64,000 bases of DNA, from NCBI GenBank assembly GCA_050253415.1, contig JBFWJC010000001.1, positions 648,679-712,678 of the forward strand. Reading direction: 5' to 3'. The notes under the pieces were generated by a model that was not told the origin of the DNA, searched no databases, and saw nothing but the letters and a program-made list of their open reading frames with translations. Of this stretch, positions 43,998 to 47,420 are shown piece after piece (position 1 is the first letter of the stretch; each line of letters starts with the position of its first letter). Source of the stretch: Pedobacter sp. (GTDB lineage Bacteria; Desulfobacterota; Desulfuromonadia; Desulfuromonadales; Syntrophotaleaceae). A program made the position numbers and the translations under genes.

Positions 43998-44795
43998 ATG
44001 TGTCGCTTTTTATCTCTATTGCTCATCTCATTTCTTGTCATCGGGGTCGCCAGCGGTTTTCGTGTGTCTCAGGGCAAGATTCTCCAGAATGGTTTTCTGG
44101 CCAGTTGCTTTCGGGGCTACAGTGCCGCATGGGGGCAGGAACTATGGCGTTCTGACGGAACTTCCGAGGGTACTACGCTTATCCGTGATATCAATCCTGG
44201 CAGTAACTCGGGGCAACCCTATCAGTTCAGAGCATCGGATGAGCTGCTCTATTTCGGCGCCGACGATGGCAGCCACGGCTTTGAGTTGTGGCGTTCCGAT
44301 GGCAGCGCCACCGGTACTCAGATGGTGGCGGATATCAATGACGGCCCGGCCGGTTCTTTCCCGGCCGGCATCACCATTTTGGGCAAGCGGGTTTGCTTCG
44401 GAGCGGACGACGGCAGTGCCGGTCGCGAACTGTGGTGCTCGGCTGGTACCGCTAACGATACCCGCATGATTATGGATATCTTTCCGGGTTCCAAGGGATC
44501 TAATCCGAGATATTTCACCGAAGTGGAAGGTATGCTGTTGTTCGAAGCCGATGACGGCATACATGGCAGGGAATTGTGGCGCACGGACGGCACCCCGGAG
44601 GGTACCATGATGGTCTACGATATTTTCGCCGGTAGCGATAATTCCTGGCCATCCAATTTTTCCAAGACCAACGGAATATTGTTGTTTCGCGCCACCGATA
44701 GTATTCACGGGCGCGAACTATGGCGTAGCGACGGTACCCCGGAGGGAACCTACATGGTTAGGGACCTCAATAAGGGGGTGAAAAGTGCCTTCTAG
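43998..44795 (+). CDS. Secreted ELWxxDGT-repeat protein (five repeats of about 48 aa)
   Basis: ELWRSDGT, ELWRSDGS, ELWCSAGT, ELWRTDGT, ELWRSDGT; hydrophobic N-terminus. Confidence 0.9.
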   Translation: MCRFLSLLLISFLVIGVASGFRVSQGKILQNGFLASCFRGYSAAWGQELWRSDGTSEGTTLIRDINPGSNSGQPYQFRASDELLYFGADDGSHGFELWRSDGSATGTQMVADINDGPAGSFPAGITILGKRVCFGADDGSAGRELWCSAGTANDTRMIMDIFPGSKGSNPRYFTEVEGMLLFEADDGIHGRELWRTDGTPEGTMMVYDIFAGSDNSWPSNFSKTNGILLFRATDSIHGRELWRSDGTPEGTYMVRDLNKGVKSAF

Positions 44796-44891: not shown

Positions 44892-44968
<77 letters not shown>

Positions 44969-45053: not shown

Positions 45054-45093
45054 TTGCCGCCATGACGCAAGGCTGATAGAATGATTGCGTCAT
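45054..45093 (+). promoter_or_regulatory. Sigma70 promoter with an overlapping 9-bp inverted repeat
   Basis: TTGCCG-17 bp-TAGAAT with TGn extension; ATGACGCAA (45062-45070) and TTGCGTCAT (45085-45093). Confidence 0.6.
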
Positions 45094-45114
45094 TCATTGA
45101 GAAGGATACAACCG

Positions 45115-45291
45115 TTGAGTAAATCCTCACCCAAACAAACGTATAATCGCCTTTGCGCACGGTGCCTGCGAGATTGCCGGCAGTCGGAAGGCACACTTTT
45201 AATCAGTTGTCCCCGCTTCATGCCCCGTCCCTTCAAGGTCAAGGATTACCGCTTTGACCAGCTCGATCTTTTTGGTCGTCCCCGCAAATAA
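45115..45291 (+). CDS. Small Cys-rich protein (58 aa) with a near-C-terminal QLDLF motif
   Basis: RBS gaagga, TTG start; MSKSSPKQTYNRLCARCLRDCRQSEGTLLISCPRFMPRPFKVKDYRFDQLDLFGRPRK. Confidence 0.7.
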   Translation: MSKSSPKQTYNRLCARCLRDCRQSEGTLLISCPRFMPRPFKVKDYRFDQLDLFGRPRK

Positions 45292-45473
45292 CCTTGCGCT
45301 TGATGACGTCGTAAACAATCCCTTTACAGCGTATGGCGTGCTTTTGCAGGCCCTCGGCATGTTTTTATCCACTCAAAGCACGGTCCGTGCAGGTCAAAAC
45401 ATGCCCTTGACCACCTTCTGTTTTTTTGCGTAAGCATTACGGTCGGGTGAGCCCTGATCTGTGCGGTATTTCT

Positions 45474-46601
45474 TTAGAATGCTAGGCGATCAAGGAAGTC
45501 CGTAATAAAGTGTGTGAACTTCTCGGGTTCCACCAGAAAGGAGTCATGCCCGTGGTCGGAGTCGATCAGATGGTATTCAACCGGTTTTTCCAGCTTATGC
45601 AGAATCTGAATAATTTCTTCAGCTTCCTTGGGGGGATAGAGCCAGTCGGAAGAAAAGGTAAACCATAGCGAGGGGCATTGGATACGTTGCAGGGCCTCTT
45701 CCCGGCTTTCATAATTCCAGGCAACGTCGTAAAGATCGAGAGCCTTGGCCAGGTAGAGAAACGCGTTGGTATCGAACCGGTCAATAAAGGATCGGCCGTT
45801 GTATTCCAGATACCGCTCAACTTCAAACTGCCCAAAGAAATCGAACATGCCGTCACGGGCCGAGAAACGACGACCGAATTTGAGATGCATGGACGCATTG
45901 GACAGAAAGGAGATATGTCCGATGGCACGGCCGAGGGCCAAACCGTCTGCCGGAGGGTGTTCCGGTTTGTAGTTGCCCTTTTTCCACATGGGGTCGTTAA
46001 AAATTGCCTGGCGCGCAAGGGCGTTGAGAGCGATAGCCATGGGCGATGTGCGCCCGGTTCCGGCAATGGGGATGATGGACCGGACCCGTTCAGGGAACAG
46101 CACCCCCCACTCAAGGGCCTGCATGGCTCCCATGCTTCCGCCGATGACCGTTAGCAGGCGTTGTAAGCCGAGGTGATCGATGAGGCGTTTCTGGGCGCGG
46201 ACCATGTCCCGCACCATGATGACCGGAAAGCTGAGGTTGTAAGGGCGCCCGGTGCGCGGATTAATGCTGGTCGGTCCGGTGGAGCCGCCGCAAGAACCGA
46301 TCACATTGCTGCAGACGACGAAGTAGCGGTTGGTGTCGAGGACTTTGCCGGGGCCGATCATGTCGTCCCACCAGCCGGGTTTGCGATCTTCGCTGGAATG
46401 CCGGCCGGCCGCATGGGCATCGCCGGTCCAGGCGTGGGTTACAAGAATGGCGTTGGAGCGATCGGTGTTGAGCTTCCCGTAGGTTTCATAAGCCAGTCTG
46501 ATGGGGGCGGTAAGTAGACGGCCGCTTTCCAGGCGCAGGTCGCCATCGAAGTCGATGAACTGGGTTTTGACGATGCCGACTGAATCTTCCAAGATCAACA
46601 A
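45474..46601 (-). CDS. metX: Homoserine O-acetyltransferase
   Basis: [37 protein letters not shown]; lies downstream of a SAM riboswitch. Confidence 0.95.
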
Positions 46602-46973: not shown

Positions 46974-47420
46974 CTAAAGTTTGCTGACAAGTTGGTCTAC
47001 AGGATCCTTGCAGTTTTTACCCATTTCGCAAAGCTGGGCAAAGCTGTAACGATTCAGAACCTCAATCAGTTGCGCGCGTGCTTCATGCCATACCTTGTTG
47101 ACCGGACAGTACAACTCACGTTCGCAATGGGATTCATCTGCCAGGCACAGATTGAGGTGAAGAGGGCCTTCTTCAGCCTTGATGACGTCGAGCAAGGTTA
47201 CATCCGCCGGATCTTTCATCAGGAAGAAACCGCCGCCGACGCCACGATGGGAACCAACGATGCCCAGTTTTATAAGAGGCTGAAGAATTTTAGTCAAAAA
47301 AGCGGGGGTAATGCCTTGCTCCCGGCAGATATCTTTTTTTAAAACTATTTCTCCTCGTGGCTGGCTGGCCATGAATAAAACGGCTCGTATAGCGTACTCG
47401 GTTGCTCTGGTAATGATCAC
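46974..47420 (-). CDS. Rrf2 family transcriptional regulator with three Cys (possible Fe-S ligands)
   Basis: TEYAIRA, S.RGVGGGF, C-x6-C-x5-C. Confidence 0.93.
   Translation of the reverse strand: MIITRATEYAIRAVLFMASQPRGEIVLKKDICREQGITPAFLTKILQPLIKLGIVGSHRGVGGGFFLMKDPADVTLLDVIKAEEGPLHLNLCLADESHCERELYCPVNKVWHEARAQLIEVLNRYSFAQLCEMGKNCKDPVDQLVSKL

Follow-up and report, generated by a model that had tools for sequence, protein, structure and literature searches.

A conserved Cys4 microprotein of the Desulfuromonadia with a clamp-binding-type motif near its C-terminus: a candidate ligand of the beta sliding clamp DnaN

A stretch of 64,000 nucleotides from a genome deposited as Pedobacter sp. and placed by GTDB in the family Syntrophotaleaceae of the order Desulfuromonadales (class Desulfuromonadia, phylum Desulfobacterota; assembly GCA_050253415.1, contig JBFWJC010000001.1, positions 648,679 to 712,678 of the forward strand), referred to here as the window, carries a small gene that encodes a protein of 58 residues with four cysteines (Cys4) and a QLDLF pentapeptide near its C-terminus. 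A preliminary description of this DNA, made from the sequence alone, had proposed that the product is a minimal ligand of the beta sliding clamp, DnaN, that binds a metal or an iron-sulphur (Fe-S) cluster and could modulate replication or repair in response to redox or metal state, as a competitor or an adaptor. The comparative analyses described here suggest, with a probability of about 0.6, that the product is small and basic, binds metal and docks on DnaN. The gene, its expression signals and the segments of its product are as follows, in positions of the window:

45054..45082, + strand: promoter-like, sigma-70-like site with -35 element TTGCCG, a 17-nt spacer and an extended -10 element TG-n-TAGAAT
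45062..45070 and 45085..45093, no strand assigned: perfect 9-bp inverted repeat ATGACGCAA-N14-TTGCGTCAT that flanks the -10 element
45099..45106, + strand: ribosome-binding site GAGAAGGA, 8 nt before the TTG start
45115..45291, + strand: coding sequence of the Cys4 microprotein, TTG start, TAA stop, 58 residues, backed by orthologues, purifying selection and a conserved start position
45145..45219, + strand: Cys4 head, N11-x-L-C14-x2-C17-x-R-x-C21-[RK]-Q23-x8-C32-P-R-[FY]35, its N, L, four Cys, Q, P and R invariant in 51 of 51 sequences
45220..45258, + strand: proline-rich linker, x3-P39-F40-K-x5-[FY]47-[DE]48, of fixed length, with no insertion or deletion in 51 sequences
45259..45273, + strand: clamp-binding-type motif Q49-L-D-L-F53, five residues from the C-terminus
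45274..45288, + strand: variable basic tail GRPRK; the tail after F is 1 to 33 residues long among orthologues and variable in sequence

The translation of the coding sequence (45115-45291, + strand) is MSKSSPKQTYNRLCARCLRDCRQSEGTLLISCPRFMPRPFKVKDYRFDQLDLFGRPRK. An automatic list of open reading frames (ORFs) begins this frame at 45085, giving 68 residues, and initiation at the TTG at 45115 gives 58. The shorter reading is supported by the orthologous loci described below, since a start codon stands exactly 13 codons 5' of the first cysteine codon in 39 of 51 of them, and in most loci a purine run resembling a ribosome-binding site precedes the start codon at this position. The promoter-like site has 9 of 12 matches and a TG preceding its -10 element. 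Within one family (f1), an extended -10 element of the form TGnTA[GC]AAT together with an upstream TTGCC or TTGTC element was present in all 14 of the upstream regions compared. The earlier claim of a dedicated promoter and ribosome-binding site holds. Among these regions, the inverted repeat persists in altered form in L001-L004, the closest relatives, and is absent from L005-L014; it is possible that it acts as an operator or forms a 5' hairpin. A scan for intrinsic terminators returned none for the small gene, and folding of 45285-45435 gave z = -2.7 and no clean terminator. No LexA-type site was recognised upstream of the small gene, a weak negative obtained with a Geobacter-type pattern; the only matches to this pattern carried two mismatches and were located at the promoter of the neighbouring tRNA gene. 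The two lexA upstream regions of the genome have no 8-mer in common. It was also observed that lexA lies directly upstream of the gene of a Y-family polymerase (G000:C5:152331-154264, - strand) and that three direct repeats, ACTTACG(C/G), surround its promoter.

To assess conservation of the four cysteines and of QLxLF, 61 genomes of the order were searched in six frames, which yielded matches in 51, including the genome of the window itself (E <= 1.4e-12). The frames of all 51 loci were extracted, and a profile (A1) was built from 50 orthologues. As the gene is short, begins with TTG and is unannotated in many assemblies, it might be suspected of being non-coding, that is, a chance ORF, a leader peptide or an RNA element. 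The pattern of substitution makes this hardly credible. Within the genus, differences per site at codon positions 1, 2 and 3 were 0.049, 0.033 and 0.374, synonymous codon differences outnumbered non-synonymous ones by 300 to 71, and invariant residues were encoded by alternative synonymous codons; moreover, the frame is open in 50 of the 51 loci and the position of the start is conserved. The small ORF is a real protein-coding gene that is selected as a protein, as codon patterns of purifying selection and the conserved start indicate. In one orthologue (L017, G030:C49), an in-frame TAG directly precedes the codon for the fourth cysteine, with the remaining frame and the motif intact; this could represent a recent pseudogene, a sequencing error or read-through.

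The core of the protein, 43 residues from N11 to F53, aligns without gaps across the 51 orthologues, and 14 of its columns are invariant: N, L, the four cysteines, Q23, P33, R34, P39, F40, Q49, L52 and F53. The cysteines follow the spacing C14-x2-C17-x3-C21-x10-C32. Within the linker, P39 and F40 are joined by a lysine at position 41 in 42 of 51 sequences, an aromatic residue at position 47 in 48 and an aspartate or glutamate at position 48 in 34. Within the pentapeptide, Q, L52 and F53 occur in 51 of 51 sequences, position 50 is L in 48, M in two and Q in one, and position 51 is D in 37, E in 12 and G in two. Conservation in the microprotein is thus highest in the Cys4 head and in the QLxLF motif. 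The features read from the single sequence, namely a CxxCxxxC-x10-C cluster, a basic composition and QLDLF five residues from the C-terminus (residues 49-53 of 58), are borne out, the four cysteines being present in every orthologue. The statement that no enzyme domain is attached also stands; a search for longer fused forms found none, which is weak evidence.

When the A1 profile was applied to a phylum-wide sample of 401 genomes, 14 matched and 387 did not, and all 14 matching genomes were labelled as the genome itself, the same order or the same class. By the source names of close relatives in sequence databases, the genus is Syntrophotalea and the wider group Desulfuromonas and Desulfuromonadales. 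The gene is a class-level, usually single-copy gene. All 120 of the database homologues listed were named 'hypothetical', 'uncharacterized' or 'cytoplasmic protein', and none had a Pfam domain; matches in the ESM Atlas were confined to unnamed hypothetical clusters. Searches of Pfam and NCBIfam at E <= 10 and of PHROGs returned no family for the microprotein, and 30-31 relatives compared with Pfam and PHROGs showed nothing significant over the Cys4 head, Pfam adding only helix-turn-helix (HTH) domains. The best match of a sequence profile in the PDB, a fragment of FBXO11, had an E-value of 0.1 and was judged not meaningful. No publication on the microprotein was found in the openly accessible literature, as judged by titles and abstracts. 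By these comparisons, the microprotein is a member of no described family.

Evidence that the conserved pentapeptide may address the sliding clamp comes from its form, its flank and its evolution. Canonical clamp motifs are defined as Q-phi-x-[L/M]-[F/L] and Q-phi-x-[L/M]-x-[F/L], with QLxLF and QLxLxF as the forms of highest affinity, QLDLF as the strongest consensus peptide, and flanks that are usually acidic (PMC11139829). The QLDLF of the microprotein falls within this definition, and the earlier identification of QL[S/D]LF as the clamp-binding consensus agrees both with the definition and with the highest-affinity form (PMC11139829). A pentapeptide Q-[LM]-[DEG]-L-F is present in 50 of the 51 orthologues, the sole exception being QQDLF, and an acidic D or E directly precedes its Q in 34 of them. 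Among the 120 database homologues listed, 118 carry Q-phi-x-[LM]-[FL] at offset +16 from the fourth cysteine. In two sister families of the same class, all eight homologues retain the Cys4 head (NKLCxxCRRxCKQ...CPRYYP) and have a changed tail, which takes such forms as QMELGL, QLELGL, QMELDL, QMDLEL, QMDLGL, QMELGF, QQELHLF, QPELF or QQELF, several of these at the extreme C-terminus. The hexapeptide class is known from Pol IV (QLVLGL) and Hda (QLSLPL) (PMC11139829). As read from these alignments, the tail alternates between two recognised classes of clamp motif across lineages, with the rest of the tail varying. Such a switch between pentapeptide and hexapeptide points to the DnaN pocket as the selective target and is hard to explain otherwise.

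The strict motif Q[LM][DES]LF is rare in this genome, with 10 occurrences in six-frame ORFs of at least 50 residues (4.59 million residues in total). For six of these, the frame is non-coding or the motif precedes the start codon. The other four are in real proteins: the microprotein, MutS (QMSLF; identity by TIGR01070), the Y-family polymerase (QMDLF, 42 residues from its end) and a 478-residue frame (G000:C1:1472770-1474203, - strand) that ends in ...TQQLSLFNS and is FliD-like, judging from its N-terminal sequence only. MutS and the Y-family polymerase are both members of families known to be clients of the clamp.

The host DnaN is a standard clamp, matching a chain set that includes 1mmi, 1ok7 and 3d1e with E 4.8e-64. 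Two stretches of its pocket, T175-D-G-H-R-L180 and V366-x-M-P-M-R371, do not vary among 29 DnaN sequences from the order, the pocket having been assigned by offset to the Escherichia coli residue list of PMC11139829. The complex model suggested in the preliminary description was computed from a DnaN alignment (A2) and the microprotein alignment A1. Three runs scored 0.42, 0.47 and 0.47 (median 0.47; best of three controls 0.01), which separates the pair from its controls and places it in the band of weak support, and they showed contact agreement of at least 85% and a partner pLDDT (predicted local distance difference test) of at least 56. Of 157 solved complexes, 116 attain the mark used in this prediction, as against 2 of 215 mismatched pairs; scores at or below 0.60 account for only 18 of the solved complexes that reached it, and for both of the mismatches that passed.

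The head is shared far more widely than the complete protein. Searched against 1.84 billion representatives, the A1 profile matched 412 clusters at E <= 1e-3 and 21 at E <= 1e-10, most of the 412 matches covering the head only (N-x-L-C-x2-C-x3-C-K-Q-x8-C-P). The sample examined consisted of 148 of the best 150 matches, after removal of a repetitive protein of 1024 residues and one match without the head. The features of this superfamily, namely N, [KR]Q and CP in the head, a size of 40-100 residues and a high positive charge (mean net charge +8.2 over about 71 residues), are all found in the window protein. A clamp-type pentapeptide or hexapeptide follows the fourth cysteine in 63 of the 148, at fixed offsets of +8 (for example, PVQLEIKF, PIQMEIKF and PKQLEFKF) or +15 to +18; the pattern used for this count was looser than the definition in PMC11139829, as I, F or V was allowed at position 4. 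In controls, 1000 shufflings of the tails produced 1.9 such peptides on average and never more than 8, while reversed tails contained 2 and N-terminal parts 1. By hhalign, the probability of head homology was 98.7% to the +8 subgroup and 97.7% to a second subgroup that is distinguished by an N-terminal motif; since the alignment of the +8 subgroup was chosen by motif, the conservation of its motif is circular and only the comparison of heads is independent.

The second subgroup comprises 28 of the 148 representatives (for example, P0036, P0069 and P0097), in which E-[LW]-x-[FL]-[FY]-L is fixed 17-18 residues before the first cysteine and the tail motif is missing; a further 57 of the 148 carry neither the tail nor the N-terminal motif. 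By source names, one +8 member is found in Cloacimonadota metagenome-assembled genomes (MAGs) and the N-motif group in Anaerotruncus. The N-motif group occurs in at least 594 places, and the best 80 of these, which come from many gut Clostridia genera and a few MAGs of Bacteroidota, share 94-98% identity. In the single annotated locus of this group (L117), the gene lies between genes for a large serine recombinase, an HTH regulator, an HTH protein, a DUF3847 protein and a MobA/MobL relaxase, neighbours that place it in a mobilisable integrative element. One relative in the superfamily is fused to an HTH_17 domain. These mobile-element and HTH associations point to DNA transactions, for the relatives rather than for the window protein. 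In three hexapeptide members (P0046, P0048 and P0062), RGRP or PGRP tails directly follow the clamp-type motif, and these tails resemble AT-hooks. The N-terminal motif of the mobile-element subgroup might conceivably be a degenerate clamp motif of the N-terminal, Hda-like kind.

The cysteines invite a further reading, in which a clamp competitor is toggled by the Cys4 cluster, possibly of the Fe-S type, as a switch that senses redox or metal state. All four are invariant, the fourth is followed by proline as is common at Fe-S ligands, and the hosts are, by their taxon names, anaerobic metal reducers. On the other side, the spacing CxxCxxxC-x10-CP is unlike both the ferredoxin pattern CxxCxxCxxxCP and the radical S-adenosylmethionine pattern CxxxCxxC, no Fe-S family of Pfam or NCBIfam is matched at E <= 10, mobile elements of gut Firmicutes, in which there is no obvious call for redox sensing, carry the same head, and a sensing cluster and a structural metal site are not separated by sequence. 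A sensing switch is accordingly judged improbable, and this part of the preliminary description found no support beyond the presence of the cysteines themselves.

The surroundings of the gene were compared across all 51 loci. The neighbours in the window and the genes that recur elsewhere are as follows:

44892..44968, - strand: tRNA-Met(CAT), initiator-like, divergent from the small gene, context
45474..46601, - strand: metX, homoserine O-acetyltransferase, convergent neighbour (NF001209, E 5.8e-141)
36 of 51 loci: metX convergent downstream
20 of 51 loci: mnmH directly upstream on the same strand
25 of 51 loci: tRNA-Met nearby
2 loci (L028 and L031): tRNA-Sec directly upstream
Remaining loci, in various positions: alaDH, GGDEF-EAL, tatC and metallo-beta-lactamase-fold genes

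The tRNA-Met(CAT) has three G:C pairs beside the anticodon loop and a 1:72 mismatch, which we take to be initiator features. Of the 14 loci of family f1, 12 have it next to the small gene; in another 13 loci it stands on the far side of mnmH, at a distance of about 1.2 kb. The divergent arrangement with an initiator tRNA that had been noted is real; it is local synteny of one family (the 12 of 14 loci) and carries no functional link. Because mnmH encodes tRNA 2-selenouridine synthase and tRNA genes are frequent neighbours, a role in tRNA or selenium metabolism might be considered, and the counts for mnmH, tRNA-Sec and tRNA-Met given above are in its favour. Against it, mnmH is about 190 kb distant in this genome (C1:503714) while the small gene stays with its own conserved promoter, neither metX nor mnmH is near the loci of the sister families, and the protein has no feature that suggests tRNA chemistry. 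Such a role is therefore very improbable, and the selenium-related genes tRNA-Sec and mnmH probably recur at the locus through ancestral synteny. Gene context was rejected as a clue to function, as the neighbours vary. Two other genes of the window may be recorded here. A protein with five ELWxxDGT repeats is encoded at 43998-44795 on the + strand, upstream of the tRNA (TIGR04534, E 4.7e-96), and homologues occupy the same place in five loci of the family; an ORF of 148 residues at 46974-47420 on the - strand begins MIITRATEYAIRAVLFMA and presumably encodes a regulator of the Rrf2/IscR type.

Several results weigh against docking on DnaN as the conserved function of the gene, or give it less support than might be hoped for. 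Across the 51 loci, the conserved neighbours include no gene for replication or repair. The gene has no match, even by profile search, in 10 of the 61 genomes of the order. Five of these 10 are draft assemblies with gene-bearing congeners, and the other five, 99-100% complete, are every sampled member of two families and look like real losses; since two families lack it at such completeness, the gene is dispensable. In the wider superfamily, 85 of the 148 representatives lack a canonical tail motif, from which it follows that the Cys4 head has a function independent of the motif. The QLSLF end of the FliD-like protein illustrates that the motif can arise without an obvious clamp role. The docking score lies in the weak band, and, as clamp-peptide complexes have been solved, the pass may reflect likeness to them. 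The AlphaFold2 model built from A1 is moderate overall (mean pLDDT 75.3, predicted template modelling score 0.39) and consists largely of coil, a short helix being placed in the head; pLDDT is 79-83 in the head and 66-71 in the last 17 residues, which are modelled as coil, as would be expected of a linear motif. Searches with this model by Foldseek against the PDB and across a VIA-wide set of folds gave 0 matches. Finally, public RNA runs contained only about 0.07-0.08 of the sampled words, probably from the tRNA, and DNA-type runs at most 0.28.

Some of these results would fit a metal- and nucleic-acid-binding microprotein, an accessory of DNA, RNA or the ribosome, whose tail binds a partner other than DnaN or packs on the head and resembles a clamp motif by coincidence. 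The many motif-free and strongly basic relatives, the lack of replication genes nearby and the QLSLF of the FliD-like protein all speak for it, as does the linker, in which P-F-K...[FY] is conserved like the motif itself and suggests a larger interaction surface. Coincidence, however, sits poorly with a motif that alternates between exactly two known clamp-motif classes, with the presence of the preferred acidic flank, with the fact that two of the three other real proteins of the genome that carry the strict motif are in known clamp-client families, and with docking controls of 0.00-0.01 against 0.47. A partner other than DnaN is accordingly regarded as unlikely. Motif-dependent binding of the microprotein to DnaN, to which we assign a probability of about 0.6, is the best-supported explanation, resting on the conserved motif, the switch of motif class, the DnaN pocket and the weak docking result. 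The minimal clamp ligand of the preliminary description is retained in this form, and the response to redox or metal state that was attached to it is unsupported.

Metal binding, DnaN binding, DNA contact and a regulatory role are steps that we infer from these comparisons, and they can be combined as follows. A single metal ion, with zinc as a guess, is most likely bound by the four invariant cysteines and would fold residues 11-35 into a compact knuckle. The proline-rich linker of fixed length would then present the C-terminal peptide [DE]-Q-L-[DE]-L-F, which may enter a DnaN protomer at the hydrophobic pocket that separates domains II and III. This is the pocket used by polymerases, MutS and other clamp clients. 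As the protein has no catalytic domain, any effect must come from occupancy of the pocket on loaded clamps, from the basic head being brought near DNA or another protein, or from both. In view of the charge of the protein and the DNA-linked relatives, the form of docking on DnaN that is preferred here is a clamp-tethered, DNA-contacting accessory that would modulate which clients use the clamp. The microprotein and its orthologues most likely constitute a new family of non-enzymatic ligands of the beta clamp.

If binding to DnaN is true, a class-wide, non-enzymatic clamp partner would be built on an undescribed metal-binding domain, and the protein would provide an entry point to a superfamily of hundreds of clusters with clamp motifs at fixed positions. 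With 58 residues and relatives in genetically amenable Geobacter, it would also be a tractable model for regulation by pocket occupancy on loaded clamps. More generally, it would show that core factors associated with replication can be encoded by small genes that have escaped annotation. Since antibiotics are directed at the clamp pocket, natural minimal ligands of high affinity would in that case be of structural interest. The bacterial clamp has far fewer known partners than PCNA, and perhaps only a subset has been identified (PMC11139829).

Among known systems, the closest in motif are the canonical clamp clients. In E. coli, terminal clamp motifs include QLGLF in Pol II, QLVLGL in Pol IV, QLNLF in Pol V and QLSLPL in Hda (PMC11139829). 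Like the microprotein, canonical clients carry a short Q-phi-x-L-(x)-F/L peptide with an acidic flank in a terminal segment, which is unstructured in the clients and modelled as coil in the microprotein, and both the pentapeptide and the hexapeptide form occur among them as they do among the orthologues and relatives of the microprotein. Unlike the microprotein, which has 58 residues, no catalytic domain and only the Cys4 head, they are enzymes or AAA+ regulators of 230-1100 residues. The microprotein was also considered as an AAA+ protein of the Hda type and rejected, as 58 residues are too few for an AAA+ domain.

In general design, the microprotein resembles YabA (PF06156) of Bacillus subtilis, a small zinc-binding regulator that binds DnaN and DnaA. 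Both are small and non-enzymatic, with a metal held by cysteines and an interaction with the clamp, both of which are predicted for the microprotein. The microprotein differs from YabA in having no Pfam match at E <= 10, no coiled-coil tetramerisation domain and half the size, and it carries QLDLF whereas YabA is not known to have a canonical C-terminal QLxLF. No match to PF06156 was found anywhere in the genome, and a search for Hda with TIGR03420 was matched only by DnaA, at a strict cut-off that 1 of 14 control genomes passed. As neither YabA nor Hda was detected, a clamp-linked regulator of another kind is plausible in this genome.

A parallel to the eukaryotic clamp can also be drawn. PAF15/p15 and the C-terminus of p21 bind PCNA through a PIP-box (PCNA-interacting peptide) and combine a clamp motif with basic, DNA-contacting segments, their occupancy of the pocket regulating which clients have access. 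They belong to another domain of life, use another motif and another clamp and have no metal head, so the likeness is one of analogy. The broadest proposal that we entertain, tentatively and at less than even likelihood, is that the microprotein is the chromosomal founder of a multi-phylum superfamily of very basic Cys4 microproteins that would ride the beta clamp by interchangeable pentapeptides and hexapeptides with a metal knuckle placed on DNA behind or at the clamp, a bacterial counterpart of PAF15 and p21 with housekeeping versions in Desulfuromonadia and mobile-element versions in gut Firmicutes. Non-enzymatic DnaN binders of restricted distribution are known in the SocB toxin of Caulobacter and in the clamp binders of phages. 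Unlike these, the microprotein is encoded by a single-copy chromosomal gene with stable class-wide synteny and no antitoxin-like partner.

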